Shown here: positions 4,957 to 24,858 of the stretch, piece by piece
Position numbering within the stretch: position 1 is the stretch's first letter
Layout of the letters: every line of letters begins with the position of its first letter
Assembly: GCA_049317445.1 (NCBI GenBank)
Contig: JBMOIG010000023.1
Span: 1 to 43,493 of the forward strand
DNA from: Myxococcota bacterium
Lineage (GTDB): Bacteria > Myxococcota_A > UBA9042
Length of the DNA stretch: 43,493 nt
Direction of reading: 5' to 3'
Position numbers and translations under genes: made by a program
The notes under the pieces: generated by a model
What the model was told of the DNA's origin: nothing
The model's database searches: none
The model's input: the letters and a program-made list of their open reading frames with translations, nothing else

Positions 4957-5161
4957 GCATCCTCCCCTGAATTGTTCGATGCCTCCACCCTTCACCCTAG
5001 GGATCCAAGGCCGGGCGCGCAAGTCGCCTTTGCTGTCTCGGAGGCTACCCTGATCACAAAACCTCAAGAGCTTCGCTTTGTTCCCATCAAGATCAACCCG
5101 TTTCTTGCCAACCCGGACCTCCACAGGCATGTTCCGGGGCTGCGGGAGGGCTGGCTTGTAC

Positions 5162-6901
5162 ATGATCCGGCACAGGCTCCAGAGGGCAGGCAGTGGCGGT
5201 CGATGGACCGCGGCGCTGCTGACTACCTTGGCGATCTTGGCCCCCGGCCCTGTGGTGGCCCTGAGCCTTCCGCCTGACCCCCCAGAGAGTGCTGAAGCTG
5301 CCGCAGACGAGCCCCCAGGGCTACAGGTCGACGAGGTTGTTGAGCCTTCGCTCTCGACCGGCGATACCTCTCGCGGTGAGCTGCGCGGCGGTGTCGAAGT
5401 GCCCACGGCGGCGCCAGGACTCCAGCGGCTGTCCGTGGTTGCGCGGCGTGGCACGGGTTGGGGAACTCGCGATCTGGTCTCGCTGATTGTGCGCGTGGCC
5501 GACGAGCTGGCGCGGCTGCCCGACCACCAGACCGTGCCGCTGCGCGTCGGCAACCTGTCTCGCCGTCAGGGTGGCGACTTGCGCTGGAGCCACTCGCACG
5601 CCTCAGGGCGCGACGCAGACTTCGCGTTCTACCTGCTCAATGCCGATGGCGAGCCGACGATGCCCGATGGCTATGTCGCTCTGGACGGATTGGGGCAGGG
5701 CAGGGTTCGCCACAAGCCGGTGAGCTTCGACATCTCCCGCAACTGGAACGCCGTGCGGGCGCTGTTGGTCGACTCGCAAGTCCAGGTGCAGCATCTGTTT
5801 ATCGCCGTGCCGCTGCGGCAGCTTCTGCTCAGCCACGCGCGCGCTCAGGGCGAGCCGGAGTGGCTGGTGGAGCGTGCGTCTCTGGTGCTCAGCGAGCCGG
5901 CGTACTCTGGACGCCACGACGACCACCTGCACATCCGCCTGTACTGCAACCGCGACGACCGGTTGGCGGGCTGCATCGACGAGGGCCCTCGCTGGTCGTG
6001 GGTGACGACGTTCGAGCCCGAGCTCAAGCGGCACGTCAGCGATTTGATGGCGGAATTGGGAGAGCCCGATCTGCACCGCCGCGTCGAAGCCGTTCGTCGT
6101 CTGGCCGTCTTTCAGCGCGACCCGCGGGTGGTCGATGCGCTGGTCTGGGCCGCATCGAGTGGCGTGCCGGAGCTGCGCTGGACCGCTTTGGACGGGCTCG
6201 CCCGCTTTCGCCGTGCTGAGGCGTTTGCGCCCCTGATGGCGGCGGCGAGGCGTGAGCCTGATGGTGCAGTCACCCAAGAGTTGTTGGCGGCGGCGATTCG
6301 TCTGGCGCGGCCGGCGAACGCAGGTGACCTCTACGCGCTGCTGCAGGAAGACGCCGGCGGGCTTTCAGGGCGACTGGACGTCCAGCAGCGGTCGGTCCTG
6401 CGGCAAGTGGTCGTACGCGCCGTGCGGCCGTGGCTGATCGAGTCGGCGGTGGCTCCGGTTCTGCTGGTGTTGAGCGACCCCGACGTGACGACGCGGCGGG
6501 CCGCGCTGCGGACCCTCGAGCACCTGGCGAACCGACGGTTTGCCAGCACATCCGACGTGTTGACGTGGCGTTGGCAGGCCGAGGGGCAGGACCGTGAAGA
6601 CTGGCTCGCCGAGGGCTTTGTCGCGCGCGGCTTGCCGCAGGGCCTGTCGTCGCCCGAGCTGATCGCCCTGGTCGGCAACCGCGACCCGACGCTCGCTGCC
6701 AACGCGGAGGCCTTGCTTCGCACGCGTTTGGGGGGGCCGGGAGAGATGGACCTCACGCCCGTGCGCCGCGTGCGCGCGTGGAAGCGCTGGTGGGACCTGA
6801 ATCAGCACCGCTTTGGCATCGCGGACATCGACCACGCCGCGATCACCGCGCAGCTCGATGCCGCAGGCGCGTCCCTACGGACCCCAGCAGCGCAGGAGTA
6901 G
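5162..6901 (+). CDS. Penicillin-insensitive murein endopeptidase (MepA-like, peptidase M74) fused to a C-terminal HEAT-repeat domain
   Basis: Signal peptide (MIRHRLQRAGSGGRWTAALLTTLAILAPGPVVALS). Motifs WSHSHASGRDADF and GRHDDHLHIRLYC match the MepA Zn-binding H-x-H...D and HxxHxHVRL signatures. The ~300-aa C-terminus has PBS-lyase/HEAT-like repeats (RVEAVRRLAVFQRDPRVVDALVWAAS..., TRRAALRTLEHLANRR). The start is uncertain; ATG 5129 is an alternative. Confidence 0.7.
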   Translation: MIRHRLQRAGSGGRWTAALLTTLAILAPGPVVALSLPPDPPESAEAAADEPPGLQVDEVVEPSLSTGDTSRGELRGGVEVPTAAPGLQRLSVVARRGTGWGTRDLVSLIVRVADELARLPDHQTVPLRVGNLSRRQGGDLRWSHSHASGRDADFAFYLLNADGEPTMPDGYVALDGLGQGRVRHKPVSFDISRNWNAVRALLVDSQVQVQHLFIAVPLRQLLLSHARAQGEPEWLVERASLVLSEPAYSGRHDDHLHIRLYCNRDDRLAGCIDEGPRWSWVTTFEPELKRHVSDLMAELGEPDLHRRVEAVRRLAVFQRDPRVVDALVWAASSGVPELRWTALDGLARFRRAEAFAPLMAAARREPDGAVTQELLAAAIRLARPANAGDLYALLQEDAGGLSGRLDVQQRSVLRQVVVRAVRPWLIESAVAPVLLVLSDPDVTTRRAALRTLEHLANRRFASTSDVLTWRWQAEGQDREDWLAEGFVARGLPQGLSSPELIALVGNRDPTLAANAEALLRTRLGGPGEMDLTPVRRVRAWKRWWDLNQHRFGIADIDHAAITAQLDAAGASLRTPAAQE

Positions 6902-7752: not shown

Positions 7753-8528
7753 GCCGGGCCTCCGTCGTGAGTGAACGAGAGATCGACGCCGACATCGCGC
7801 TGGAAGAACTCGTGGACAATCGGGTCGCTGCTGAGCAGGGCGTCGTCCGCGGTTCCCGAGAAGCGAACCTGGCAGTCGTACAGCAGCACGTAGCGGTCGC
7901 ACACCGCACGCATCCGATCGACGTCGTGGCTGACGATGATCGACGACGACCCCTGCGCGATCTGCAAGTCTCGAATCAGGTTGAAGATCTTCGACGAGGT
8001 CACGGGGTCCAGACCGGCCGTGGGGTCGTCGTAGAACACAAGCTCGGCGTTCGCGATGGTCGCCCGCGCCAGTCCGACGCGTTTGCGCATGCCGCCCGAC
8101 AGCTCGTTCGGCATCAGCCCGGCGACCAGGGGCAGACCGACCTCGTTGAGGCGCTGCTGCACCCTGTTGGCGATCTCGGGCGCCGTCACCGCCCCGTCCT
8201 GCGCCAGCGGAAAGGCGATGTTCTCGCCCACGGTCATGAAGTCGAACAGCGCGTAATTCTGGAAGGAAAGTCCGATTCGGGTGCGCAGCTTCTGCCGGTC
8301 CTTCTCGGCCAACTGCCGCAAGTTCTGGCCCAGGACCTCGATCTCGCCACGGTCTGGCGCCAGCAGTCCGCAGCACAGCTTGACGAAGACGGACTTGCCG
8401 CAGCCGCCGGGTCCGATCAGCCCGACAATCTCTCCAGCGCGCAGCTCGAAGTCGATACCGTCCAGCACGCAGACGCCTTCGAAGCGCTTGCCCAGACCCT
8501 TGACGCGCAGCACGACCTCCTGGCTCAT
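7749..8528 (-). CDS. mlaF: MlaF-like ABC transporter ATP-binding protein
   Basis: Walker A GPGGCGKS, signature LSGGMRKRVGLARA, Walker B LVFYDDPTAGLD and an H-loop SHD. 259 aa. Overlaps the upstream lipoprotein gene by 4 nt. Confidence 0.9.
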   Translation of the reverse strand: MSQEVVLRVKGLGKRFEGVCVLDGIDFELRAGEIVGLIGPGGCGKSVFVKLCCGLLAPDRGEIEVLGQNLRQLAEKDRQKLRTRIGLSFQNYALFDFMTVGENIAFPLAQDGAVTAPEIANRVQQRLNEVGLPLVAGLMPNELSGGMRKRVGLARATIANAELVFYDDPTAGLDPVTSSKIFNLIRDLQIAQGSSSIIVSHDVDRMRAVCDRYVLLYDCQVRFSGTADDALLSSDPIVHEFFQRDVGVDLSFTHDGGPA

Positions 8529-9691
8529 CGCGTCGCCTCGCTGTGTTGCAGGCGGGCGATGGCTTGGCGGGCGACGGCAGTCTCGCCGGGCTCGATGGGT
8601 GTCAGCGTCGCGATGTCGGCAAAGCAGCGGTCCCGCGCGGCGGGGTCGGGCTCCTCAGAGCAGATGCGGCGGTCGTTGGCGACTTCCTCGCGGCGACGCG
8701 CTTCAACGACGCTGACGACCTCTCGATAGGTGCCCAGCGCGTCGTCAGGGTGGCCTCGCTCCTCCTGAATCTCTGCCAGCGTGACCAGCAGAGCCGGCAG
8801 CTCCGTGGCGTGCATCATCATCTTCGGCAGCTCGCGCATGTGCCGTTCGGCCCGTTCCAGATCCTTGAGTTCATAGCGATAGAGATCAACCAGCCGCCGC
8901 GTGGCGTCCAGATGCGCCGTCGTCGTGTAGGTGCCGAAGACCAAACTGGTTTCCCAGGTTGCTACCACCTGTTCCAACGTCCGGGCCTCGTCGCGGGGCC
9001 TCGCCAGCGCCCGCTGCAGCCGCGCCTGCAACATCCGGGCGTCCAGGGCTGTCGGGTCCTGTCCGTGGCGGTCCTGCAGGCGTTGCAGCAACACCAGGGC
9101 TGTCTCGCGGGCCCTTGGCGGGTCGGTCTCGGCCATCAGCTCGGCGGCGCGCAGCAGCAGGTTGTCGGCCAGATCGGAGTCAGGGGCGGCCACCTCCAAC
9201 TCCCTGAAATGCTGAATCATGGCGTCGCGTTGAACTGGCCCGCGTCGGGCGTAGCGAACCAGAACGTCCACCGCTCTGGCCGAGGCGGCTTCCTCCGGGG
9301 CGCGTGTGACCAGCGCGTCCAGCATCCGCAGGGCGTCGGGCGCACGGTCGAGCTCGTCCAGCCGCAGCTCAGCCGCGTGCAGCAGAGCTCGCGCTCGCGT
9401 GGCTCGCGTGTCAGCGTCAATGGCCAGTGCGTCGTAGCAGACGGCGGCTTGCAGAAACTGCCTGTCCCGCGACGGGGTCTCGCAGGCCAACAGCGCCGCG
9501 TCGTCGGCGTCGCGTGGGTCGGTGGCGGTGTGACGCAATTCCGCATAGCGGGCGGCGGCTTCGGTGTGCCCGCCGTCCAAGTACAGGTGCTCGGTGGCGT
9601 AAAACTCAGCTTCCCAGCGCACCAGCTGCGGGCTTTGGGCGCAGGCGGCAAGCAGCAAGGGCAGGGCGTGAAGGAGGGGACGGCAGCGCAT
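8525..9691 (-). CDS. TPR-like helical repeat lipoprotein (hypothetical), in operon with MlaF/MlaE-like genes
   Basis: Signal peptide with a lipobox (LLLAACAQS). The protein is all-alpha and Ala/Leu/Arg-rich with TPR-like periodicity. It starts 12 nt after the stop of the giant Cys-rich gene and overlaps mlaF by 4 nt. Confidence 0.6.
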   Translation of the reverse strand: MRCRPLLHALPLLLAACAQSPQLVRWEAEFYATEHLYLDGGHTEAAARYAELRHTATDPRDADDAALLACETPSRDRQFLQAAVCYDALAIDADTRATRARALLHAAELRLDELDRAPDALRMLDALVTRAPEEAASARAVDVLVRYARRGPVQRDAMIQHFRELEVAAPDSDLADNLLLRAAELMAETDPPRARETALVLLQRLQDRHGQDPTALDARMLQARLQRALARPRDEARTLEQVVATWETSLVFGTYTTTAHLDATRRLVDLYRYELKDLERAERHMRELPKMMMHATELPALLVTLAEIQEERGHPDDALGTYREVVSVVEARRREEVANDRRICSEEPDPAARDRCFADIATLTPIEPGETAVARQAIARLQHSEATR

Positions 9692-9703
9692 CGCGCGCGC
9701 AGG

Positions 9704-12700
9704 CTAATACCCAAGCGTCAGGTTGTCGATCTGCCACGTCGGCGTGCCGATCATCGCGGTCGAGGTCAGCTGGAACCCGAGCTGGATCGCCCCCTTGCCG
9801 CCGAGCGGCACCTTGATCGCGACGTTCTGCGTGCCGGTGGTGACGTTGAGCAACTGGACCTCGCTCCAAGTCGAACCGCCGTCGCTGGACAGCCGCACCG
9901 AGAGCGTCGAGTTGCTGGGCAGCGGGAAGGGCGCTCCATTGTTCGCATAGGTCAACGCAAACTTCAGCGTGGCGGCCTGATCGGCGCCGGTCTCGATGAT
10001 CGGGCTGGTCAGGAAGGCGCTGACCGACACGAAATTCGGGAGCTGGGCCGATGCACTCAACTGGGCGAGCTTGTTGCTCTTGTTGTTTTGGATCAGCTGC
10101 CAGTTGGCTGGGCTGAAGCCGGGCAGTGCTTGCGCCGACCAGCCGCCCTCCGCAAAGGTCTTCAGGTACTGGTCGAAGAGCTCGGTCCACGGCAGCTTGC
10201 TCGCGTCGCAGGCGTCTCCCGTGCCGTTGCCGTTCGAGTCCTTCTGGTCCGGGTTGACGACCAACGGGCAGTTGTCCGACTTGTCGGCGATCCCGTCGTT
10301 GTCGTCGTCCAGGTCGCACGCGTCGCCCTGCTTGTCGCCGTCCGTGTCCAGTTGGTCCGGGTTGACCGTGTTGACGCAGTTGTCCACGTTGTCGCACTTG
10401 GTATCGCCGTCCTGATCCGGGCAGCACTCGGGCGAGGTCGACGGCTGGTGGAAGCAAGTGCCCGATGCGCAATAGTCGACGGTGCACTTGTCGTTGTCGG
10501 CGCACTGGAAGTCTGACTTGCACGGAGCAGGGACGCACACGCCGTTCGCGCTGCATACGCTGGCGGCGTCGCACTGGCACTGGCCGCCGCAACCGTCGGA
10601 ACCGCAAGTGTTGGGCGCGCACTGGGGAACGCAGGTTCCGCCGCAGCCGCCGCACAGTTTGGTCTGGCACAAGTCGACGCAAGGGGCATCCCAGCCGGCC
10701 TGGCAGCAGAACGGATCCTGTTCACAGACGCAGGCTTCACAGCCGCAGCCGCCGCAGCCGGGGTTGGGCGTGATGGTGCAGCCGTCGTTGGGCGGGCACT
10801 CGCCGCAGTCCATGTTGCAGTTGGTGCAGGTCTCGCCTTGGGAGTCCGCGCAGATGCCGTCGCCGCAAACGGGGCCGCAGGTGCCGCAGTCCTTCGAGCA
10901 GTTCTTGCAGGTCTCGCTGAGGTTGGGGTCATAGCTGGACGCTTCGCACTGGCCGTCGCCGCACACGGGGAAGCACGGACCGCAATCGGTCGCGCAGTCC
11001 TTGCAGTTTTCACCGGCCTCGCACTTGCCGTTGCCGCAGGTCGGCGGGCAAAACATGACCCCAGCGCAGTCGATCTTGCAGTTGGCGCAGTCCTCGCCGT
11101 GGGGTGAGTCGCAGGTGCCGTCACCGCACACCGGCGGGCAGACGCCGCAGTCCTTGTTGCAGGTCTTGCAGTCTTCCTTGGCCTCGCAATTGCCGTTGCC
11201 GCACACGGGCGGACAAACGCCGCAGTCGTTGGCGCAGGTGGCGCAACTCTCTCCCAAGGCAGCGTCGCAGGCGCCGTCACCGCACACCGGCTGGCACGCA
11301 CCGCAGTCCTGGGCGCAGCTGGAACAGCTCTCACCCGCGTCGCACTGGCCGTCGCCGCACGCGGTTGGGCAGTTGCCGCCGCACTGGTTCTTGCACTCGC
11401 CGACACAGATGTCGTCCCACGCCGTCGAGCAGCAGTAGTTGTCCGCCGAGCAGACGCACTGCTCGCAGGAACACCCGTCACAGCCCTGCTTGCCCGTCGC
11501 CTGGCACCCGGTCGCACACGCACCGCAGTCATTTTGGCAGGTCTTGCAGGTCTCACCCTTGGGCGTCTCGCAGATGCCGTCGCCGCACACGGGCTTGCAG
11601 ATTCCGCAATCCTGGGAGCAGGTCAAACAGGTTTCTTTGCCCGCGGAGCAGACGCCGTCGCCGCACGCCGGCGGGCACTTGCCGCAGTCCTTCGCGCAGG
11701 TCGAGCAGCTCTCCTTGCCCGCAGTGCAAACGCCGTCGCCACAGGTGGTCGGGCAGCTTCCGCAGTCCTTCGGACACGTCGAGCAGCTCTCCTTGCCCGC
11801 GGTGCAAACGCCGTCGCCGCAGGTGGTCGGGCAAATGCCGCAGTCAGGCTGGCAGGTTGAGCACGTCTCGCCCTTGGCCGGCTCGCACACCTTGTCGCCG
11901 CACTTGGGCGGGCAGCTGCCGCAGTCGATCGAGCAGCTCGAGCAGTTCTCCAGCCCAGCCACGCAGATGCCGTCGCCGCAGGTGGGCTGACAGGGACCGC
12001 AGTCCATCGGACAGGTCGAACAACTCTCCGCGTTCGCCGTGCACACGCCGTCGCCGCACACGGTGGGACAGATCCCGCAGTCCATGGGGCAGGTTGCGCA
12101 GCTTTCCTTGCCGGCCGTGCAGACGCCGTCGCCGCACTTGACGGGTTGCTGGCACCACTGCTGGTAGTCGGGGCAGCAGTCGCCGTATTGGGTGCAGACG
12201 TCGTCGCAGTAGCAGTTCTGGTCCGACCCTCCGCACTTGCCTTTGCAGGATCCGGCAGGGCAGGAACCGCAGTCATTGGGACAGGTTCCGCAGGACTCGC
12301 CGTCGCTGCATTGGCCGTCGCCGCAAATGGGCGGGCAGACGCCGCAGTCCAGCGCGCACGAGCTGCAGGTCTCGCCGAAGCCGATTTCGCACTGCTTGTT
12401 GCCGCAGAAGTTGGGGCACTGGCCGCAGTCGACCGAGCAGGTCAGGCACGTTTCGCCAGCGAACACGTCGCACGTGCCGTTACCGCAATTCGGCGGGCAC
12501 TTTCCGCAGTCGGCGGGACAGGTTGTGCACTGCTCACCAAGTGCGGCCTCGCACACGCCGTTGCCACACGCGGGGGGACATGGGCCGCAGTCGGTCCCGC
12601 AGGTCTGGCAGTTCTCGGCTTTCGACAGCTCGCAGATGCCGTTGCCGCAGTCGGACGGGCAGGTGCCGCAGTCCTTCTTGCAATTCGAGCAGTTCTCTCC

Positions 12701-13774
12701 TGCGGAGGCCAGACAGACCCCGTCGCCGCAGTACGGCTTGGGACACGTGCCGCAGTCGTTGACGCAGGTGTTGCACGTCTCGCCCAGCGCGGGCTCGCAG
12801 GTTCCGTTGCCGCACGACGGGCACTTGCCGCAATCCATCGGACATACAGTGCAATTCTCCGCCGAGCTGGGTTCGCACACGCCGTCGCCGCACTTCTGGC
12901 AGGCGCCGCAATCCTTGGCACAGCTCAGGCACGTTTCCTTCTTGCCGGGCTCGCACTTCATGTCGCCGCAAATGGCGGAGCATTCGCCGCAGTCGCCGGG
13001 GCAATACGTACAGTTCTCACCGGCTTGGGGCTGACAGGTGCCGTCGCCGCACGCCTGGCACGCGCCGCAGTCTTCCTTGCAGGTCGTGCAGTCTTCACCT
13101 GTCGAGGCAGAACACACGCCGTCGCCGCAGGTCTTGCACGCACCGCAGTCGGCAGCGCAGGTGCCACAGGTCTCGCCCGCAGCGGGGTCGCAGACGCCAT
13201 CGCCACAGACCGACGGGCACGCGCCGCAGTCGTCGGCGCAGGTGCCGCAGCTCTCGCCCGCTTGGGGCGCGCACTTGCCGTCGCCGCAGGCGGACTGACA
13301 CGGCGCGCCGCACTTGCCGCACAGTTCTGCGCATACCGCATCCCACGCCGACGAACAGCACGACGGGTCGACGTTGCACACGCAGTCCTGACAGCTGCAG
13401 CCCTGGCAACCGGCTTGGCCGGTGGGCTGGCAACCCTTGGTGTCGCCGCACGCCCCGCAGTCTTGCGGGCAGTCCGTACACGACTCGGTGGTCTCGCACT
13501 TGCCGTTGCCGCACGGCGCGGGGCAGGCGCCGCAGTCCGTCGCGCACGAGCCGCAGTCCTCGTTGGCCATGCACACACCGTCGCCGCAGTACGGCGGAGG
13601 GATGTCGGGGTCGACGATGTCGGTGGTGTCGAGATGCACGTCTTGGGCGTCCGACGCGGTGTCGCCGGGGTTACCGTACTCGGGACCCTGCAAGGTGGCG
13701 TCGTCGCCGCAAGCCGAGGCAAGGGCGGCAACGGCAAGCAAGGCGAGTCCGAGTCGAAGGCGCAAGGTAGACAT
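9704..13774 (-). CDS. Giant secreted cysteine-rich repeat protein (~33 six-Cys CGDGxC...GExCxTCxxDCGxCP repeats), C-terminal thrombospondin type-3 Ca-binding repeats and a ~190-aa C-terminal domain
   Basis: ATG 13774 with a GGGAGGA RBS. N-terminus [22 protein letters not shown] (lipoprotein-type signal). The 25-28-aa repeat occurs ~33 times. Three or four ~45-aa modules with GCxGCSCxxCVCxxDxxCCxxAWDxxC are interspersed. TSP3-like repeats: [60 protein letters not shown]. Resembles the Cys-rich repeat proteins of myxobacteria. Confidence 0.85.
10787..13588 (-). repeat. Tandem array of ~78-84-nt coding repeats (~33 copies) inside the Cys-rich gene; some adjacent copies are near-identical at DNA level (e.g. 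~11666-11821 and ~11981-12136)
   Basis: Direct reading: adjacent segments such as ...gtcgagcagctctccttgcccgcagtgcaaacgccgtcgccacaggtggtcgggca... recur with 1-3 substitutions. The protein-level periodicity is [26 protein letters not shown] / [26 protein letters not shown]. Confidence 0.8.
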
Positions 13775-13968
13775 GGCATCCTCCCGTTCGCCTCTGCGGG
13801 GGCGGGCGTCGGGTTGAGGGGCGGCGCGGTCAGGCGGCCGCCATCGAATCAAGCGACGGTTCGAAGGCTTGCGTGTACGCAAAAAACAGCCTCGCACCGG
13901 GCGACCAATAGGTTACCAGATGCAGACCGGGCTGCGCCACACGCGATTGCGGGGGAGAGGCAGAGAGA

Positions 13969-16026
13969 CTACAGACCGACGTCGGCGGCGTAGTTGACCT
14001 CGATCTCATCGGTCGGCTCAGGTACGGCCGAGAAGAAGATCGCCTCTGCATACTGCTTGCAGAGCTTTTCGTTGCACACCAGTCCGGCCGCGCAGTCACG
14101 CGTCGACTTGCAGGCCTGCGACTCGCCGGGCAGGGTTCCGCTGTCGCTGGTGCGGCAGTCGGGGGCGGCCTTGAGGTAGAAGCTGTCGGGTTTGGTCGAC
14201 TCCGCGTGCTGGACGTACTCCATCTGCTTGGTCTTTCCGCCGCGCTTGCGCACGACCTTGACCAGCGGCTTGCCGTCTTCCCAGTTGGGCGGGTGCGGCA
14301 GGCAGACCTTGATCACGCGGCCGAGGATCAGGTTGGCGACCTCTGTCAGCGCGGGGCCAAAGTCTTCTCCCTCGCAGATGTTGTAGAAGATGCCGTTCTC
14401 GCCGAAGGCCTTGGTCAGCGCGATGTACCGCGAGCCGTAGCCCGACTCGCCGCGCGCGCCTTGGCACACATACGGCACCTGCTTGGGGGCGGTGTTCTTC
14501 AGCACCGACCGGTAGTACTGCGATACGTCGATGCGCCGCTGGAAAGCGGTCGCCAAGGCGCTGGCCCCAGAGGCGTACAACGTGTCCCCGGTGATGGCCG
14601 CCACCATGACGCGGCTGGGGTCCGACTTCAGGGATCGGAATCGATTGACGAAATCATTGACCGTCGCGAAGCGGGTGTCGAACTTGATGCTCTCGAGGAT
14701 GCCCTTGTCGGCGGACGCAACGCACTTGGTGTAGTCGTCGGAGCCGACCTTGAACTTCACGCAGTCGGACAGGCACACCAGACTTGGGTTCGACACCTTG
14801 CGGATCTCGCAGCTGCCCTCGTTCAGGCCCTTGTTGCCGGCCACCGCATCGCCCAGCGACTGGCAGCGGTCCTGGACCTCAGAGGGCAGGATGCCCGCCT
14901 TGCCGGTCTTGGGATCGCCCACGATGACCTTCTTCTCCTCGGCGTTCAGGTTCGACAGCGAGATGTCCAGATTGACCGAGCAGTCGTCGTCGTCGCTGAC
15001 GAACACGATGACCAAGTAAGCGTCGTCGCGCACCAATTGCTTGTACTGGCACTTGGTCGGGTCGATCTTGCCCGTCTTGTCCTTGGTGCAGTTGATGCCG
15101 TTCGGGTCGAGCGCGTACCAGGCGGAGCGGAAGCCGCCCTCGAACTTCGACTCAGTGCTGGTGCCGGCGCCCACCGTGGCGATGCACTTGAACAGGTCCA
15201 GCGTGGGCTTGTTGGTCGGGTTGCCCTTGGCGTCCAGCGGGTGGGACTTCAGCACCGGCGGCAGCTTGTCCGACGTCGGGCAGGTCTTGGTGTCGGGCGG
15301 GAACATGCAGCCGGCGTTCTCAGGTGTGGTGCCGCCGGGGATGTAGCAGACCGACCGGCGCTCGCTGAGGGGCACGTTGGATTCGTACAGCTCCTGGCAT
15401 TCCTTGTCGCTGGTGCAGCGCTTCTCGCAGTAGGAGTTGATCGAGCAGTTCAGGTTGGTCAACAGCTGGTCCGTGCCCGGCTTGTCGCACTTCCACTTCG
15501 TGTTGCCGCCCACGGGATTCTCGTAGGTGCCGGTGCCGCCAACCGGGCACATGGACGACGGACCGACCGACGTGAACTGGTACTCGACCACGGCTTTGGT
15601 GCACTGCAGGTCGGTCAAGCAGGGCAGGCGGACCCGCTCCATGCAGTTGGGCGGAAATGCGGTTGCGGCGGAGTGCATGAACTGGCCGACCTGCTTGACC
15701 TGATTGGTCTCGACGGTCGTGCCACCCAAGTCGGAGATCTGCTGCACCGTAACGACAGCCATCTGTGCGTCGATCGTGCCCAGCGCCTGCAGGTTCTTGA
15801 TGAACTTGTCGAAACCCTTGGCGAGCTCGCGCTGCTCCTGACACATCGACGACGAGTGGTCGATCACCCAAAGGAAGTCGAGCTTCACCGCCTCCTTGTG
15901 TGACAGCTTGCTGGTGACCCGCACCTCGAAATTGTCGAGCAGGCTGTGAACGGGATAGGTGTTGCAGGTCGCGAGCAGGGGAAGCAGCACCAGGCTGACC
16001 ACAAGCAGGCGGGCGGGCTGGATCAT
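13969..16026 (-). CDS. Secreted VWA-domain lipoprotein with large Cys-rich insertions (hypothetical)
   Basis: ATG 16026 with GGAG upstream. Signal plus lipobox MIQPARLLVVSLVLLPLLATC. A MIDAS-like DxSxS (DFLWVIDHSSSM) and a later VWA-like strand (AYLVIVFVSDDDDCS). ~35 Cys. Unusually Lys-rich for this genome. Directly upstream of, and co-oriented with, the giant Cys-rich gene. Confidence 0.7.
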   Translation of the reverse strand: MIQPARLLVVSLVLLPLLATCNTYPVHSLLDNFEVRVTSKLSHKEAVKLDFLWVIDHSSSMCQEQRELAKGFDKFIKNLQALGTIDAQMAVVTVQQISDLGGTTVETNQVKQVGQFMHSAATAFPPNCMERVRLPCLTDLQCTKAVVEYQFTSVGPSSMCPVGGTGTYENPVGGNTKWKCDKPGTDQLLTNLNCSINSYCEKRCTSDKECQELYESNVPLSERRSVCYIPGGTTPENAGCMFPPDTKTCPTSDKLPPVLKSHPLDAKGNPTNKPTLDLFKCIATVGAGTSTESKFEGGFRSAWYALDPNGINCTKDKTGKIDPTKCQYKQLVRDDAYLVIVFVSDDDDCSVNLDISLSNLNAEEKKVIVGDPKTGKAGILPSEVQDRCQSLGDAVAGNKGLNEGSCEIRKVSNPSLVCLSDCVKFKVGSDDYTKCVASADKGILESIKFDTRFATVNDFVNRFRSLKSDPSRVMVAAITGDTLYASGASALATAFQRRIDVSQYYRSVLKNTAPKQVPYVCQGARGESGYGSRYIALTKAFGENGIFYNICEGEDFGPALTEVANLILGRVIKVCLPHPPNWEDGKPLVKVVRKRGGKTKQMEYVQHAESTKPDSFYLKAAPDCRTSDSGTLPGESQACKSTRDCAAGLVCNEKLCKQYAEAIFFSAVPEPTDEIEVNYAADVGL

Positions 16027-16141
16027 GGACGGGGCTCCGGCGCGAAACGGGGGCAAAACGCCCAGCCGGACGATAGCATCGCGCCTCGTTTCGCGCCAGA
16101 CGGGATGACGAACCGTTGCAGGTTCGCCTACGTGGCCGCGG

Positions 16142-18052
16142 TTACCTTCTCGCCAGTAACTCGCGGACCTCGGGACCGAAGGCTTGGGCCAGCGCCGCGT
16201 TCACCTGCTCGTGCCGCGCACCGCCGTGGCCCACCAGCCGTCCCTCAGCCAGCACCCAGACCTCGTCAGCATGGGCCAGCGCCAGCCGAAGGTCGTGGAT
16301 CGCCAGCACCACCAGCGCTCCGTCGCGGTGCGCGAGATCGCCCAACTGACGCAGCAGGCGGTCGGCCTGTGGCAGGTCCAGCGAGGCGGTCGGCTCGTCC
16401 AGCAGCAGCACCGGAGCCTCCTGCGCCAGCACCATGGATAGGAAGGCGCGCTGCCGTTGCCCGCCGGACAATGTCTCGACGGGGGCGTGGCGCAGTTCCG
16501 TCAGCTCCATGCGTTGCAGCGCGCCGTCGACGGCCTTGCGGTCGCGCGCAGCCAGACGTCCCCACAGCCGCAGTGCCAGATTGCCTTGCAGGTGGGCTGT
16601 GCGGCCCAGAGCGACCAGATCTTTCGTACGAATGCCGGGTTCCGTGGTGGCCTGCTGAGGCAGGAACGCGATGCGCCGCGCGTCGGGGCGGCCAAGGCGA
16701 ACGCGGTCGTCGTCGCAGATCGCGCCCGAGGACGGCGGCATCAGGCCTGCCAGTGCGCGCAGCAGCGTCGTTTTTCCCGCGCCGTTGGGGCCGACGACGG
16801 CGACCAGTCGACCGAGGGGCCAGGACAGATCCATAGAAGAGACAGCGGGTTGCGGGGTGTCCGGGTGTTGCAGCGTCAGTGCGCGGCAAGACAGCGCCGG
16901 TCTCAGCGAGGGGGCGGCGGCGAGGTCCATGGCAGGTTCGGCGGCAGAGGCGGCAACGACGGGCGCGCAAGGGGCGTTCACGGCTCGCTTGTGCCGCCGC
17001 TTCGGGCCCAAGCCAAGCAGCGCAACCAGCACCGGAGCACCCGCAAGGGCCGTCAGGATGCCCACCGGCAGCTCGGCGGGCGAAACGACCACGCGCGCCA
17101 GGGCGTCCATCCACGCCAGAAACGCACCGCCCGCCAGCACCGCGGCAGGCACAAGGGCGCGGTGGTCGCGACCCAGAACTGCCCGCAGCCCATGGGGAAC
17201 CAGCAGCCCCACGAAACCGATGATGCCCGCCAGCGACACGGCGACCGCGGCCAGCGCGCTGGACCACCACACGGCGCTGCGGCCCAACCGTCGCTCGTCC
17301 ACACCCACGCCCTGCGCCGCATCGGCACCCAAGGCCAGCGCGTTGAGCCGCGGCGCCTGTGCCACGGCGAATCCGGTCGCGAGGACCAACACGACCGCGC
17401 CCGGCACCAGCGCCCACAGCGACGGCACCGAGACGCCGCCCATCAACCAGGAGGTGGCCGCACGCAACCGCACGTCGCTCAAGCGGTACAGCGCAAACGA
17501 GGTCGCCGCGCCGCCGAATGCGGTCAGCACAAGGCCCGCCAACAGCACCCGCTCTGGCCGCAGCGGACCGCCCGCGCGGGCGATGGCGAACGTCAGCGAC
17601 ACGGCCAGCAGCGCGCCGACCAGCGCGGCGGCCGGCTGCAGAAATGGCAGGATCTGCTGCGGATCCGCGCCGACCCATGCGCCCACCGTCAGGCCCAGCG
17701 GCGCCGCCAGCACGGCTGCCAGCGTCGCGCCCGAGCTCGTGCCGACCAGATAGGGATCCGCAATCGGGTTGCGCGTGGCGGCCTGCAGCAGCACGCCGGA
17801 CAGCGAAAGGGTCGAGCCCACCAGAAACGACCCCAGCACCCTCGGCCAGCGCACATCCCACAGGATCGCCCGCGCCAAGGTCGCCGTCGGACTGTCCGGG
17901 CCAAGGGCGTCGGCTGCCAGCTGCAGCGGTCCCTGCGCCGAGGGCCCGACCGCAAGCGCGCCCAAGATCGAGAACAGAGCGAGCGCAAGTCCGCCCGTCC
18001 ACGCGAGCATCAGCGCGGTGCGGGTCGTCAGGCGTGGCGCGTGCAGGGTCAC
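16142..18052 (-). CDS. Fused FecCD/BtuC-type permease and BtuD/FepC-type ATPase (single in-frame ORF) of a cobalamin/iron-complex ABC importer
   Basis: The N-terminal ~340 aa are a FecCD permease (LAWTGGLALALFSILGALAVGPS..., ...GILTALAGAPVLVALLG). These continue without a stop into an ABC ATPase (VVGPNGAGKTTLLRALAGL, LSGGQRQRAFLSMVLA, LLLDEPTASLD, AIHDL). The GTG start at 18052 overlaps the btuF-like stop (GTGA) and GGAGG lies upstream. Confidence 0.7.
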   Translation of the reverse strand: MTLHAPRLTTRTALMLAWTGGLALALFSILGALAVGPSAQGPLQLAADALGPDSPTATLARAILWDVRWPRVLGSFLVGSTLSLSGVLLQAATRNPIADPYLVGTSSGATLAAVLAAPLGLTVGAWVGADPQQILPFLQPAAALVGALLAVSLTFAIARAGGPLRPERVLLAGLVLTAFGGAATSFALYRLSDVRLRAATSWLMGGVSVPSLWALVPGAVVLVLATGFAVAQAPRLNALALGADAAQGVGVDERRLGRSAVWWSSALAAVAVSLAGIIGFVGLLVPHGLRAVLGRDHRALVPAAVLAGGAFLAWMDALARVVVSPAELPVGILTALAGAPVLVALLGLGPKRRHKRAVNAPCAPVVAASAAEPAMDLAAAPSLRPALSCRALTLQHPDTPQPAVSSMDLSWPLGRLVAVVGPNGAGKTTLLRALAGLMPPSSGAICDDDRVRLGRPDARRIAFLPQQATTEPGIRTKDLVALGRTAHLQGNLALRLWGRLAARDRKAVDGALQRMELTELRHAPVETLSGGQRQRAFLSMVLAQEAPVLLLDEPTASLDLPQADRLLRQLGDLAHRDGALVVLAIHDLRLALAHADEVWVLAEGRLVGHGGARHEQVNAALAQAFGPEVRELLARR

Positions 18053-19041
18053 TTCGCCTCCAACGATGGAAATGCTTCGGGGTGCAGGGCTCGCGCGATC
18101 TGCTCGACCCCCAGCACCAGACGGGGACCTGGGCGGCTGACCCAATCGGACCGCAGCGGATGCACGCGACCCTGGCGCACCGCACGCAGCGCCTGCCATC
18201 CCGGTCGGGCGCGAACCGATGCGAGCGACTGCGGCGCCTCGATGGCGTCGGCGTCGGCCAGGAGAATCGCGTCGGGGTCGCCCACGAGCACCGCCTCGGT
18301 CGAGACCTGGAACCAAGGCATCGCTGCGTCGGCGAACAGGTTCTGTCCACCCGCGGCCTCCAGCACCGCGTGGCCGAACGCCTCGCGCGACACCGTGAAG
18401 GGCCGCGCCCCGTCCCCTGCGTCCATTTCATAGAACACTCGCGGCTTGGGCAGTCCCGCAACTCGCCGCCGGATGTCCTCGAGCTGACGGGCAAACGCCC
18501 GCTGGAGCACGTGCCCTGCCTCGGGTTGACCGCAAGCCCGCGCCACGTCACCCAGCGTCTCTTGCACTTGATGAAGATCCTTGGGGGAGTAGCCCAAGTA
18601 CGGCACCCTGGCGGCGTCCAGCGCGGTCCGCAGTGCGGCGGGCGGAAAGTGGGTCAGGACGAGGTCGGGGTGGGTGGCCAGAATCGCCTCGGCGTTGGGC
18701 ACGAAGCCTTGCGCGGCGGGGATGGTGCGGGCCTGTGACGGGTAGTCGCTCCAGCCGTCGCGCAAGACGACAGCGTCGCCGCAGCCGACCGCAAACAGGA
18801 TCTCGGTCAGGGCCGGCGACAGCGAGACGATGCGGCGCGCGGGAGAGGCGAGCTGAATCGTGCGGCCCTGGTGGTCCGTCAGCGTCACCGTGGCAGAAGG
18901 CGCAGGTGTCGCAGGGACTTGCGCGTGGGTGGTAGCAGCGGGCGGAAGCGACGGCGTGGCCGCTGGGCGTGAGCACGCCACCAGGCAGACCACCGCCGCG
19001 AGCACGAGCCTTCCGGACGCGCGTGACCTCGACGTCACCAT
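18049..19041 (-). CDS. btuF: BtuF/FhuD-like periplasmic substrate-binding lipoprotein of an ABC importer
   Basis: ATG 19041. Lipoprotein signal MVTSRSRASGRLVLAAVVCLVAC. Cluster-A binding-protein features (RIVSLSPALTEILFAVGCGDAVV..., HPDLVL, GYSPKDL). The symbol is assigned from the adjacent cobalamin riboswitch and TBDR. Confidence 0.75.
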   Translation of the reverse strand: MVTSRSRASGRLVLAAVVCLVACSRPAATPSLPPAATTHAQVPATPAPSATVTLTDHQGRTIQLASPARRIVSLSPALTEILFAVGCGDAVVLRDGWSDYPSQARTIPAAQGFVPNAEAILATHPDLVLTHFPPAALRTALDAARVPYLGYSPKDLHQVQETLGDVARACGQPEAGHVLQRAFARQLEDIRRRVAGLPKPRVFYEMDAGDGARPFTVSREAFGHAVLEAAGGQNLFADAAMPWFQVSTEAVLVGDPDAILLADADAIEAPQSLASVRARPGWQALRAVRQGRVHPLRSDWVSRPGPRLVLGVEQIARALHPEAFPSLEAK

Positions 19042-20405
19042 CCAAACGCTCCCATGTCGACGGCCGCCAGACCGCCGGGGTTCGACGTCACGGCGGGCAG
19101 CTCGAACGGATGCTCGGCGTCCTTCACGTCGAACACGCGCAGATCGCCGGCGGCGTGCGACGCCTCGCCCGCCCACACGATGCGGCGGGCGCCGTCGGCG
19201 AACAGGCCGCTGAACCCGAACGGCTTGCCGGCCTTGGCCAGCGGATATCCGCCCCACGACGCCATGTCGAGCAGCCACAGGGTATCGGGGGTTTCCTTTG
19301 CGAAATCGCCCGTCGTCGTGGTCACCAGATACCGTTCGTCCAAAGCCGCCAGATCCTTGCCGAACGGCGCCATTGCCAGGACGGTGGCCGAAGCCTCGAC
19401 TTCGGCGACCGGAGGACTGGCCGCGGTGTCGATGACCAGAATGTTCGAGTACGCGTACTGCTTGCCGTCGGGCTCGCCGAAGAAGCCCGTACACAGCACC
19501 GCGATCTTCGTGGACGTGCCCAACCGCCTGGCCTGCACGCAGTTCTTGGACTCGGGGGCCTCGACCACGTGGACGACCTTGCCCGTCTGCGGATCGATGG
19601 CGACCACCCGGCCCTTGCCCGCCGTCTGGAAGTCGGTGCTCATCGAGGCCAGCGGCACCCACACGAGCTTGCCGTCAAAGGCAAGCCGTCCGGGCGCAGC
19701 AACCGTTCCCGGTAGCGAGGCGTAGGGACCCAGGGCCACCCGCGCGGCGAGCTTGGCCGGGTTCAGGTCGATCAGGACCAGATCGTCGCCCTCATCCAGA
19801 TCGTCCGGCGCTGGCGTGGGCGAGGCGTTGGCGGACATCCGCGACACCACGGCGCGCGAGGGAGAAACCTGCAGGAAATCTTGGGGGTTGGCATAGAAGC
19901 CGGTGGCCACCGACAGCTGCTCGCCGACCTTGCGCGTCACAGGGTCCACGAAGCTGAGCACACCTGTGCCGCGGTCGATCAGCACCAGACGGCCGTCCGA
20001 CGTCGGGGTCTGTGTCACCACGACGTCGCCGCTCAGCGCTGCACCACCCGGGGTAACCGCTGATCCCGAGTCGAGAAAGCCCGAGGCCGACACCACGCGT
20101 TTCTCGAGATCCAGTGCGGAGATCGACACCGTCAGGTAGTCCGAACCCACCACCGCAAGCTGGGTCGGCGCCAGCGCGGACGCCGTGGTGTCGGCGGTCT
20201 CTGTGGCGTCTGCGGACACATCCTCGGCACCCGCCGCATCGTCGGCCGTCGCTGTGGCGTCTTCGGCGACGTCGGCGGCATCGTCGTCGGTGTCTGCGGC
20301 GTCTGCGACCGTCGTGTCAGCGGCGACTTTGGTGGTGTCGTCCGCGCACGCCGGTAGTGCGGCAAGCGCCAAGAGGAACATCGGGATCCAGTGTTTCGTG
20401 TGCAT
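19035..20405 (-). CDS. Surface/periplasmic beta-propeller-like lipoprotein (YncE/YVTN-like) with an N-terminal acidic Ala/Asp/Thr-rich linker, inside the B12-uptake operon
   Basis: Lipobox LAALPAC followed by DDTTKVAADTTVADAADTDDDAADVAED... low complexity. Repeated strand motifs (GRLVLIDRGTGVLSFVDPVTRKV, GRVVAIDPQTGKVVHVVEAP, RYLVTTTTGDFA) suggest a beta-propeller. Overlaps btuF by 7 nt and lies 39 nt after the TBDR stop. Confidence 0.6.
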   Translation of the reverse strand: MHTKHWIPMFLLALAALPACADDTTKVAADTTVADAADTDDDAADVAEDATATADDAAGAEDVSADATETADTTASALAPTQLAVVGSDYLTVSISALDLEKRVVSASGFLDSGSAVTPGGAALSGDVVVTQTPTSDGRLVLIDRGTGVLSFVDPVTRKVGEQLSVATGFYANPQDFLQVSPSRAVVSRMSANASPTPAPDDLDEGDDLVLIDLNPAKLAARVALGPYASLPGTVAAPGRLAFDGKLVWVPLASMSTDFQTAGKGRVVAIDPQTGKVVHVVEAPESKNCVQARRLGTSTKIAVLCTGFFGEPDGKQYAYSNILVIDTAASPPVAEVEASATVLAMAPFGKDLAALDERYLVTTTTGDFAKETPDTLWLLDMASWGGYPLAKAGKPFGFSGLFADGARRIVWAGEASHAAGDLRVFDVKDAEHPFELPAVTSNPGGLAAVDMGAFGW

Positions 20406-20444
20406 CAGTTCGAGGCTCCGAGTGGACAGGGGGCTTGGGAGGTC

Positions 20445-22920: not shown

Positions 22921-24675
22921 TTACGGCGCGGTGCAGGGATTGCCGTCGCTGCACGGGGCGAGCAGCAGCGCGGTGGCGACGGGGATGTGCGTGCCGACCG
23001 GAATCTGCTTGATCTGCATGCTGCCGCCGAACTGAATCGCGCCGCTCGACTGGTTGGCCCCTGAGAGCGTCACGCCGATCGTCGCGCCCGGGATGTTGCA
23101 GATGACCAGACCCTTGGCACCGGGCGGAATCGCGCACATCGGCTGCACGAAGCCCATGTCGACCACGCGCTGGGCGTAGGTGGACGAGGCGCTGATGCTG
23201 CACGGCTTCACGGCGAACGGGTCGTTCATCGGGACGACGACCTTGTCACCGGCGTCGCGGACCTCGACCAGCATCGAACCGACCTGATGCGACGCGCAGC
23301 TGCCGCCGTCGGCAAACGCCCAGTCCAGGCTGACGACCGTGCGCTTGCCGATGTCGATGGCGTTGGCCAGCTTGGCGTCGTTGTTGGCCATGATCTGTAC
23401 GGGACCCGCCAGCAGCACGTTGCCGTAGCTGTCCGCCGTCTGCGGTCCCAGACCGTCGAGCTGGATGTAGCGCGCGCCGGCCGGGATGTTCGACAGCGTT
23501 GCCGTACCGTTCTTGCAGGGCACCTGCACGCTGGCAAGCACTTGAGTCTTCTGCTCGTCCAGCACCCGCACGTCCACGTTGGTCAGCTCGTACTTGGCGC
23601 ACTCCGTGGCGGGAGCCTTGCCCAGCACCGTCCACGTCAGGGTCAGGCCGCCCGCCCCACTCAGCTGCACCAGATTCACGGCCGGCGAGATCACCGTCTG
23701 CGTGCCGCCGGTCACCTGGAAGGGGCCGGTCAGCGGGTCGTTGCCCACCACCAGCTGGCCCTGAGCGTTCAGGCCGTCCAGCTGCAGCATCCGGCTACCG
23801 GAAGGGACGTTGCTGATGATCGCCGAGCCGTTGGCGCAGGGCACCGATCCGGTCGAGATGACTTGCTTGCCGGTGCCGTCCAGCACGCTGATGGCGATGG
23901 TCTGTACGCCGTACTTGGCGCAGCCGGTGTTGGCGGCGGTACCCAGCACCGTCCAGCCAAGCGAGATGCTTCCGGTCAAGGCACGTGTCAGCGGCGCGAG
24001 ATCGATGGGCTTCTCCACCAGCACCAAGGTGTCCGCGGGCACGTCGATGGGGCCGTAAAGGCTGGCGTTTCCCCACTCGACCGTATTGTTCTGGGTCAGG
24101 CCGTCGATCTGCAGATAGCGCACGCCGATCGGCACGTTGTTGACGGTCAGCTGGCCGGCGCTGCACTGCGTCTCAGCCGAGGCGACGATGACGGTCTTGG
24201 TGTCGTCCAGCACGCTGACGACCACCGTGTGGATGCCGCGCTTGGCGCACCCTGCGATGGCCGAGTCGCCGGCGATGGTCCACGCCACGCCGATGCTGCC
24301 CGAGGTCACGACCGTGGGCCCCAAGGGCAGCACACCGGTCGGCTGGGTGAAGCCCGCCAGCGCAGTGACGGTCTGCCACGGCGTGACCGCCACGACCGTG
24401 TCTTGCGCCGACATGCCTTCGACGCGGACGTCGTAGTCGCCTTCCGGGACGCTGATGCTCCGGGAGCCCTGCGTGCAAGAGACGTTGGCGATGCTGGGGA
24501 AAGTGCCGTCGGCGGGTTCGACCCGAATGGTGACGGAGTCGATGCCGAGGGCAGAGCAACTGCCGCCGACCGGCTCCCACTGCACCTGAAGGATGCCGTG
24601 ATTCGCACCGGTGTTGACGATGCAACCGGTGGTGAAGAAAGCCAACAGAGCAAGGGCCTTGATGATGCGCGGCAT
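22921..24675 (-). CDS. Lipoprotein with 4-5 internal ~100-aa tandem repeat domains (hypothetical, probably Ig-like/beta-sandwich repeats)
   Basis: Signal/lipobox MPRIIKALALLAFFTTGC. The repeated pattern is GxxLxWTVLGxxxxxxCAKYGvxTvxvsVLDxxxxxVxxxxxVxCxxGxxxxSNvPxGxRxlQLDGL, each repeat with a conserved Cys pair. Confidence 0.65.
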   Translation of the reverse strand: MPRIIKALALLAFFTTGCIVNTGANHGILQVQWEPVGGSCSALGIDSVTIRVEPADGTFPSIANVSCTQGSRSISVPEGDYDVRVEGMSAQDTVVAVTPWQTVTALAGFTQPTGVLPLGPTVVTSGSIGVAWTIAGDSAIAGCAKRGIHTVVVSVLDDTKTVIVASAETQCSAGQLTVNNVPIGVRYLQIDGLTQNNTVEWGNASLYGPIDVPADTLVLVEKPIDLAPLTRALTGSISLGWTVLGTAANTGCAKYGVQTIAISVLDGTGKQVISTGSVPCANGSAIISNVPSGSRMLQLDGLNAQGQLVVGNDPLTGPFQVTGGTQTVISPAVNLVQLSGAGGLTLTWTVLGKAPATECAKYELTNVDVRVLDEQKTQVLASVQVPCKNGTATLSNIPAGARYIQLDGLGPQTADSYGNVLLAGPVQIMANNDAKLANAIDIGKRTVVSLDWAFADGGSCASHQVGSMLVEVRDAGDKVVVPMNDPFAVKPCSISASSTYAQRVVDMGFVQPMCAIPPGAKGLVICNIPGATIGVTLSGANQSSGAIQFGGSMQIKQIPVGTHIPVATALLLAPCSDGNPCTAP

Positions 24676-24858
24676 GATGTCACCTCCGGCCGCTTCAACG
24701 GCCGCGCCGCCAGTCTATTCACGGCACGGCCCGATGCTCAAGCGCTGGACCGCCGTGACGCGAAATCCATGGAAGTTGACGAACCGCGCAGGTGCCTGAT
24801 CCTGCGACCAACCGCCCGCGGGGCGGCGACGCTTCGATCCGCGAAGCTGGGGAGACTC

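Follow-up and report, generated by a model that had tools for sequence, protein, structure and literature searches.

What kind of protein devotes 18% of its residues to cysteine, and what could an uncultured bacterium use it for? This question is raised by a gene on contig JBMOIG010000023.1 of the Myxococcota bacterium assembly GCA_049317445.1, analyzed here over a stretch of 43,493 nucleotides (the window, to whose forward strand all coordinates refer). The gene encodes a protein of 1,356 residues with 245 Cys, hereafter the giant protein, in which arrays of a short six-Cys repeat are joined to a Somatomedin B (SMB) domain, thrombospondin type-3 (TSP3) repeats and a C-terminal β-sandwich. We propose, with moderate confidence, that it is a lipid-anchored stalk adhesin of the cell envelope. 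An earlier reading of the same DNA (the original prediction) had described it as a giant modular protein with a layout like that of eukaryotic matrix proteins, and its individual claims are taken up below where the results bear on them.

The giant gene is a single open reading frame (ORF) of 1,356 codons plus a stop codon in the ORF list of the window. A ribosome-binding site, GGGAGGA, lies 6 nt 5′ of the ATG, and the G+C content at third codon positions (GC3) of 0.86 is like that of the other genes of the window (66–70% GC). In the two closest relatives, the gene also has exactly 1,356 codons without any frameshift, and the products are 97% and 94% identical to that of the window, with 40 and 84 amino-acid differences, respectively. 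The corresponding ratios of nonsynonymous to synonymous substitution rates (dN/dS) are 0.085 and 0.131, with similar values for stalk and head, and neither Cys changes nor differences in repeat copy number are found among the three proteins. With a dN/dS of about 0.1, the giant gene is genuine and subject to purifying selection. The alternative that the ORF arose by chance in repetitive, GC-rich DNA, or that the repeats were assembled wrongly, has a negligible probability: high-GC DNA does yield many long shadow ORFs, several of them antisense to this gene, but the same 1,356-codon gene in independent metagenome-assembled genomes (MAGs), with every Cys kept and this dN/dS, refutes such a reading, and curated domain models match in the frame of the gene. 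A recent repeat expansion or an assembly collapse was likewise rejected. At the DNA level, the repeats recur with periods of 75–81 nt and only 70–79% matches overall, which makes a collapse unlikely, and the copy number is the same in the three relatives; the DNA repeats are old. Long ORFs with high GC3 also occur antisense to the gene within 9704..13993 (+), for example 12146..13993 (615 aa) and 8543..10516 (657 aa). They are shadow ORFs, produced by the GC-rich coding strand, and could easily be taken for genes.

The modules of the giant protein follow one another in a defined order (Table 1). Between residues 63 and 1045, 30 six-Cys units form blocks of 2, 13, 8, and 7, which are separated or terminated by three modules with a CC-x3-WD motif, and the SMB domain is placed inside the array. 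The repeat array of the original prediction is therefore real, with 30 units instead of about 33, and three of the "three or four" CC-x3-WD copies stand, the supposed fourth at residues 509–543 being the SMB domain. The Cys total, previously given as more than 250, is made up of 1 Cys in the lipobox, 30 × 6 in the six-Cys units, 3 × 12 in the CC-x3-WD modules, 8 in SMB, 15 in a linker, 5 in TSP3, and none in the C-terminal domain. Thus, the 244 Cys of the mature protein lie in modules with even numbers (6, 12, and 8 per unit, CC-x3-WD module, and SMB, respectively) and in the linker and TSP3 segments. These numbers fit full disulfide pairing and agree with the extensive disulfide formation presumed earlier, the pairing itself being a prediction. 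No coiled coil or other oligomerization module was detected in Pfam and NCBIfam scans of the protein, and there is no C-terminal sorting tag, since the chain terminates in the β-sandwich.

SMB and TSP3 are identified by curated profiles. The SMB segment matches PF01033 over profile positions 2–39 of 40 (E 2.5e-10, 40.9 bits versus a cut-off of 23.1), its eight Cys are found within residues 510–541, and a PDB sequence search relates it to vitronectin (1oc0, E 5e-4). The TSP3 repeats, called bona fide in the original prediction, are confirmed by PF02412, which matches three stretches (E 2.8e-14, 53 bits versus a cut-off of 25). In the PDB search, they align residue by residue with COMP (3fby, E 7.5e-30) and also match TSP-2 (E 2.4e-27), and the NCBIfam model MtsC matches with its TSP3 portion (E 5.6e-21). 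Scans of the whole protein with Pfam and NCBIfam were nearly blind and missed both domains, probably because of composition filters; the two were found by scanning segments. In the literature on bacterial SMB domains in myxobacteria, and on MtsC, we found nothing useful.

The C-terminal domain, previously left as unknown, is assigned by profile to the choice-of-anchor J family (choice_anch_J, NF038128) as a borderline pass, with 37.0 bits for the isolated domain and 30.7 bits for the whole protein versus a cut-off of 30, over profile positions 3–161 of 162. The AlphaFold2 (AF2) model of this head is a β-sandwich with a jelly roll like those of MAM domains and Eph receptors, consistent with the choice-of-anchor J assignment. 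No sequence-profile match to the MAM or ephrin ligand-binding domain (LBD) families was obtained. Word-indexed protein searches with the single sequence and with an 11-row alignment of the domain returned no matches, and for this reason the AF2 alignment stayed at five rows. With SMB, TSP3, and a MAM/Eph-LBD-like jelly roll, all of animal matrix or adhesion types, the likeness to modular eukaryotic matrix proteins holds.

The six-Cys unit has the spacing C-x4-C-x5-7-C-x2-C-x3-C-x2-C, with linkers of 2–4 residues between units; exceptionally, the second loop of repeat 29 has 12 residues and the last loop of repeat 27 has 5. Besides the Cys, each unit has invariant Gly, Glu, and Asp positions and an invariant Asp/Asn position. 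The strict motif occurs 28 times in the protein, whereas 1,000 shuffled versions of its sequence contain it 0.001 times on average. An AF2 model of repeats 10–13 has a pLDDT of 82.6 and a pTM of 0.52. No Pfam or NCBIfam match was obtained on repeat-only segments at E <= 10, no NCBIfam model matched any of 60 diverse four-repeat segments, and a profile of the unit found nothing meaningful in the PDB. The CC-x3-WD module has no relative in the Pfam copy searched or in the PDB, where a profile search was included.

A protein search with the giant protein gave 699 matches at E < 1e-5 among 8,000 candidates scored; where named, their sources are "Deltaproteobacteria", Myxococcales, Polyangiaceae, Myxococcota MAGs, and the cultured Sorangium sp. 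So ce1128. A four-repeat profile detected 5,130 clusters (50% identity) at E <= 1e-3, 2,118 at <= 1e-10, and 454 at <= 1e-30. Among homologues, the repeat is fused to LTD, cohesin, DUF4215, cupredoxin, FG-GAP, DUF11, peptidase M64, GH16, and β-helix domains. Its fusion to so many unrelated extracellular domains leads us to read it as a generic spacer, and a general-purpose role of this kind would fit its distribution. The architecture had been considered unusual for bacteria, which does not apply to Myxococcota given the number of clusters and the published proteins TraA and CglD discussed below. The CC-x3-WD module is present, in several variants, in 49 of the 120 best homologues. Eight homologues carry the Pfam label PF26780.1 (P0004, P0010, P0011, P0016, P0037, P0076, P0087, and P0118; P numbers denote homologous proteins and L numbers homologous loci) and all of these contain CC-x3-WD. 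The label is missing from many other CC-x3-WD proteins, including P0001–P0003, and PF26780 might already model this module. P0112, the homologue from the cultured Sorangium sp. So ce1128, is a protein of 753 aa annotated as "SdrD B-like domain-containing protein" with eight six-Cys units, and is an experimentally tractable source of the repeat.

Several described Cys-rich repeats were considered as identities for the six-Cys unit. DUF4215 (PF13948), which we take to be the "Myxococcus cysteine-rich repeat" (TIGR02232) named in the original prediction, shares the opening CG[DN]G…GE.C motif and occurs on the same Myxococcota surface proteins, sometimes interleaved with six-Cys units, but differs in Cys pattern and in length. 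It gave no match at E <= 10 on repeat-only segments. Where DUF4215 does match, in P0032 and P0027, it covers a separate module between six-Cys units and never the unit, so this identity is rejected. The Dictyostelium repeat (Dicty_CTDC, PF00526) was rejected as well, with no match in the giant protein of the window and, in P0107 and P0120, matches to modules other than six-Cys units. The TraA-type repeat TIGR04201 was not found in that none of the NCBIfam models matched the 60 four-repeat segments, the presence of TIGR04201 in the release used being unconfirmed. The Cys-rich linker preceding TSP3 has a "CxPxC…CGxDGCGGxC" motif, which recurs several times in P0001–P0003, and a 12-residue motif that resembles the Dictyostelium repeat by comparison with the sequence matched by Dicty_CTDC in P0107. 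It has no Pfam or NCBIfam match, both motifs being below any model threshold.

The abundance of Cys also allows a reading in which the 245 Cys coordinate metals (Zn, Cu, or Fe) or act as a buffer against redox stress like metallothionein, without structural disulfides. We consider this very unlikely, even though metal-binding knuckles have a spacing similar to the C-x2-C-x3-C-x2-C of the unit, every unit keeps Asp/Asn, Glu, and Asp without variation, and cupredoxin domains occur on some homologues. The bacterial envelope is oxidizing (Dsb systems), and the giant protein would be exported to it. Furthermore, AF2 folds the units confidently without metals, the strictly even Cys count per module fits pairing, and the joining of the repeat to many unrelated extracellular domains is better explained by a spacer.

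The N-terminus defines how the protein would be attached. The signal peptide ends in LASA-C22, which by inspection fits the loose PROSITE-type lipobox pattern, and in orthologues this site is a classical lipobox (LVGC in P0002, LTSC in P0003). On the basis of these orthologue lipoboxes, a lipoprotein is the likeliest reading, and we describe the giant protein as a predicted lipoprotein. The same residues, ASA-C, are also a canonical signal peptidase I site, and a released protein must thus be weighed: cleavage after ASA, or shedding of the anchor, would turn the protein into a Ca2+-cross-linked element of an extracellular matrix or sheath. Its SMB, TSP3, and MAM-like domains are modules of matrix proteins, and Cys-rich proteins are typical of extracellular matrices (PMC3325183). 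We judge such a shed fibril to be fairly unlikely, as the Cys at the cleavage site is kept within classical lipoboxes in diverged orthologues, which points to lipidation, and no oligomerization module such as a coiled coil was detected.

The architecture of the predicted lipoprotein recurs in P0001 (L003), P0002 (L002), P0003 (L001), and P0007, and in loci L004–L009, L011, and L013. The shared order is R-W-R(n)-S-R(n)-W-R(n)-W, followed by TSP3 and the J domain, where R is the six-Cys unit, W the CC-x3-WD module, and S the SMB domain; more distant orthologues contain, in addition, three repeats and an insert resembling MAM. An SMB motif at the same array position was found in eight orthologues and was not detected in L006–L009. 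The architecture defines a distinct conserved orthologue group in lake Myxococcota MAGs. The original prediction was to count as refuted if the protein proved a mere member of a large paralogous family, present in many copies per genome and lacking neighborhood specificity; the family of the repeat is indeed very large, but the giant protein belongs to a distinct orthologue group with a specific conserved neighbor. The records of L005, L008, L012, and L013 are titled "uncultured Enterobacteriaceae bacterium" and carry a Myxococcota-type locus. The partner protein described below is 95% identical to that of the window in L005, and L012 has a GC content of 73%; the Enterobacteriaceae labels of the four records look wrong.

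The conserved neighbor is a Cys-rich lipoprotein of 695 aa, encoded directly upstream of the giant gene, with a lipobox and a DxSxS motif of the MIDAS type (for metal-ion-dependent adhesion site). Homologues with 38–99% identity directly precede the giant gene in L001, L003–L009, L011, and L013, that is, in 10 of 13 loci. The 99% identical protein belongs to "uncultured Myxococcales bacterium Loc090721-8m_bin-517", a MAG closely related to the source of the window. In L001, the outer flanks differ, yet the pair is kept, with a partner homologue of 47% identity directly upstream. In the Baikal-deep MAG locus L011:12212-22206, the partner is followed by two tandem giants of 1,376 aa (14% Cys) and >1,886 aa (18% Cys).

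The motifs DxSxS and SDDDDCS of the partner are invariant in nine homologues, with many conserved Cys between them. Residues 57–105 (a stretch of 48 residues) match the NCBIfam model "MIDAS family adhesin" (NF052240) with an E of 1.6e-7 and 30.8 bits versus a cut-off of 700. No Pfam match, including VWA, and no PDB sequence match, even with a nine-row profile, was found. The motifs of the partner suggest a VWA domain into which large Cys-rich segments have been inserted. Bdellovibrio Bd0875 (PMC11003981) shares with it the first β-strand region and DxSxS, and both are from predatory or bacteriolytic lineages. In contrast to Bd0875, the partner is twice as long and has the large Cys-rich insertions, and it is not a member of the family by score.

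On the other side of the giant gene, 12 nt after its end, a gene for a TPR lipoprotein is followed by genes for a MlaF-like ATPase and a MlaE permease, the trio having overlapping stop and start codons and no adjoining MlaD/MCE gene. This arrangement suggests another role, in which the rod is an envelope tether that works with the TPR lipoprotein and a MlaFE-type ABC transporter in lipid or lipoprotein trafficking. In L001, L004, and L005, the trio is found again in an order that starts with the TPR lipoprotein. It is directly 3′ of the giant gene in L004 and L005. In L003, the giant gene is followed by part of a TPR lipoprotein, after which the contig stops. However, the linkage is not conserved: in L001, 6 kb and genes of the opposite strand separate the trio from the giant gene, and in L006 and L008 the trio is absent downstream of the giant gene. 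Moreover, extracellular proteins are the typical carriers of TSP3, SMB, and jelly-roll binding domains, and 30 repeats with the other modules would by our estimate be longer than the width of the periplasm. We assign the tether a small probability. The trio may be co-transcribed with the giant gene in the window, and is probably not part of its unit.

Farther away, two thioredoxin-family genes (31079 and 43049) had been linked to the giant protein in the original prediction as nearby genes. We reject this linkage, both genes being more than 17 kb away, beyond genes for MutS2, a STAND-type protein (AAA ATPase and TPR), and glycogen metabolism, with housekeeping genes between. One of the two reads as YyaL/DUF255-like, from inspection of its CHWC region only. 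Three ORFs of 364–597 aa without a Pfam match, 16659..17753 (+), 19035..20444 (-), and 22921..24714 (-), are conserved in order and sequence (31–97% identity) beside the locus in L004–L009 and L013; these are lineage-specific genes.

Table 1. Giant gene, modules of its predicted product and neighboring genes, with coordinates in the window.
Feature	Residues	Coordinates	Strand	Basis
Whole coding sequence, Cys-rich modular lipoprotein (predicted)		9704..13774	(-)	ORF, GC3, ribosome-binding site, same-length orthologues
Signal peptide with predicted lipobox (…ALASA-C22)	1-22	13709..13774	(-)	Inspection and orthologue lipoboxes
Acidic, Pro-rich, Cys-free linker	23-62	13589..13708	(-)	Inspection, Cys count
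Six-Cys repeats 1-2	63-112	13439..13588	(-)	Motif parsing
CC-x3-WD module 1, 12 Cys	113-162	13289..13438	(-)	Position conserved in orthologues
Six-Cys repeats 3-15	163-508	12251..13288	(-)	Motif parsing; AF2 model of repeats 10-13
Somatomedin B domain, 8 Cys	509-546	12137..12250	(-)	PF01033; vitronectin 1oc0
Six-Cys repeats 16-23	547-756	11507..12136	(-)	DNA period 78 nt, 71% matches
CC-x3-WD module 2, 12 Cys	757-805	11360..11506	(-)	Motif and orthologue position
Six-Cys repeats 24-30	806-996	10787..11359	(-)	Motif parsing
CC-x3-WD module 3, 12 Cys	997-1045	10640..10786	(-)	Motif and orthologue position
Cys-rich linker, 15 Cys	1046-1119	10418..10639	(-)	Inspection
Thrombospondin type-3 Ca-binding repeats	1120-1191	10202..10417	(-)	PF02412, COMP, TSP-2
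Choice-of-anchor J domain (by profile), C-terminal, Cys-free β-sandwich	1192-1356	9707..10201	(-)	NCBIfam NF038128
Partner, 695-aa Cys-rich lipoprotein, lipobox LATC, MIDAS-type DxSxS		13969..16056	(-)	Adjoins giant gene upstream
TPR lipoprotein, weak YbgF/CpoB-like match		8525-9691	(-)	Pfam/NCBIfam; 12-nt gap after giant gene
MlaF-like ATPase		7749-8528	(-)	Pfam/NCBIfam
MlaE permease		6964-7752	(-)	Pfam/NCBIfam
Peptidase_M74 and HEAT protein		5054..6901	Other strand than the trio	Next gene after MlaE

As a lipid-anchored stalk adhesin, the giant protein would be exported by the Sec pathway, lipidated on Cys22, and anchored in the outer membrane. The remaining 244 Cys would be oxidized in the periplasm to intramodule disulfides, three per six-Cys unit, six per CC-x3-WD module, and four in SMB. 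The array of 30 mini-domains, with three CC-x3-WD modules and one SMB domain set into it at fixed places, would then form a protease-resistant, semi-rigid rod, with a length of tens of nanometres if estimated by analogy with small disulfide-rich modules of similar size. At its end, the rod would hold the Ca2+-binding TSP3 repeats and the jelly-roll head (choice-of-anchor J, MAM/Eph-LBD/CBM-like) away from the cell, where the head may bind its ligand, which could be borne by prey, particles, matrix, or sister cells. The MIDAS-motif lipoprotein encoded just upstream is a probable co-adhesin.

Several points weigh against this proposal. The lineage is uncultured, and a sequence does not reveal whether a lipoprotein is exposed at the surface; the signal peptidase I site at ASA-C adds to this. 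With a pTM of 0.52, the geometry between repeats is uncertain. The AF2 model of the head was built on five sequences with an overall pLDDT of 65.9, and the fold class of the head also includes domains whose ligands differ widely. Nor is the tip hypervariable, with a head dN/dS of 0.07–0.16 at 3–6% protein divergence, which argues against polymorphic kin recognition of the TraA type; at the available divergence, this role is unsupported. As for the partner, the wider region (mutS2 … M74 peptidase) is syntenic across the lineage, so that adjacency is weaker evidence of coupling, and paralogues of the partner are found without this giant in L010 and L012. Its VWA fold is argued from the motifs and the 48-residue NCBIfam match.

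A bolder version of the stalk adhesin, which we regard as unlikely, combines a new disulfide-knot fold with the partner in an integrin-like two-gene apparatus, where one gene provides the MIDAS head and the other the stalk, a COMP-like Ca module, and a MAM/Eph-like head. If this were true, the apparatus might serve in the capture of prey or particles by uncultured planktonic freshwater Myxococcota, and bacteria would have assembled the cell-adhesion toolkit of animals, SMB included, independently.

The stalk adhesin has published counterparts in Myxococcus xanthus. CglD, which with CglB makes up the integrin-like gliding adhesins, is a surface-exposed lipoprotein with COMP-like TSP3 repeats, a Cys-rich EGF-like stalk, a β-sandwich, and a VWA/MIDAS domain; a twelve-fold DxDxDG motif was reported in its TSP3 region, and its disulfide bonds were probed by a dithiothreitol (DTT)-titration blot (bioRxiv 10.1101/2023.10.19.562135). 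CglB is a VWA surface lipoprotein (PMC9946355). Compared by published description, CglB and CglD have the same domain inventory as the pair in the window, which has a TSP3 segment, a Cys-rich stalk, and a β-sandwich on one protein and a MIDAS motif on the adjacent one; CglB and CglD are Myxococcota lipoproteins, as the pair is predicted to be. In contrast to CglD, the MIDAS element is here on a separate, adjacent gene, the stalk has 30 six-Cys units and not a few EGF-like repeats, SMB and CC-x3-WD modules are added, and the TSP3 segment is short, with 2–3 repeats. No glt gliding genes are seen in the window.

TraA, the receptor of outer-membrane exchange in M. xanthus, is also comparable: its Cys-rich repeats have been suggested to form a rigid stalk on which a lectin-like PA14 domain is displayed (PMC3325183). 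Both TraA and the giant protein are exported surface proteins, the latter by prediction, with a Cys-rich tandem stalk that presents a β-sandwich and a partner gene adjoining. The polarity is reversed, since in TraA the PA14 domain is N-terminal and the MYXO-CTERM anchor C-terminal, whereas the giant protein has its predicted lipid anchor at the N-terminus and its head at the C-terminus. The repeat of TraA is TIGR04201, while the six-Cys unit matched no NCBIfam model; the partner TraB is OmpA-like and that of the giant protein is MIDAS-like; and the head studied here is without hypervariability among close relatives. The likeness to thrombospondin/COMP and vitronectin consists in the TSP3 repeats and in an SMB domain with all eight Cys. 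With animal matrix and adhesion proteins, including receptors of MAM/Eph type, individual modules alone are shared: the giant protein is a predicted bacterial lipoprotein, and the animal proteins have no counterpart to its module order and number or to its bulk of six-Cys and CC-x3-WD modules.

The kind of protein is therefore already known, as a Myxococcota surface adhesin with a Cys-rich stalk and matrix-like domains, and no new kind of biological system is revealed. What is new is the architecture, with a 30-unit array, about 122 disulfides if all Cys pair, and an embedded SMB domain, detected in eight of the orthologues at a conserved position. Also new are the two-gene layout with a MIDAS-motif lipoprotein and the fact that the two most abundant modules are unmatched in the copies of Pfam, NCBIfam, and PDB that we searched. 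The six-Cys unit and the CC-x3-WD module are abundant, unnamed disulfide-rich building blocks, for which family models and a structure would improve the annotation of thousands of Myxococcota surface proteins. The locus extends the integrin- and matrix-like adhesin theme of cultured Myxococcus (CglB, CglD, and TraA) to an uncultured lake lineage.

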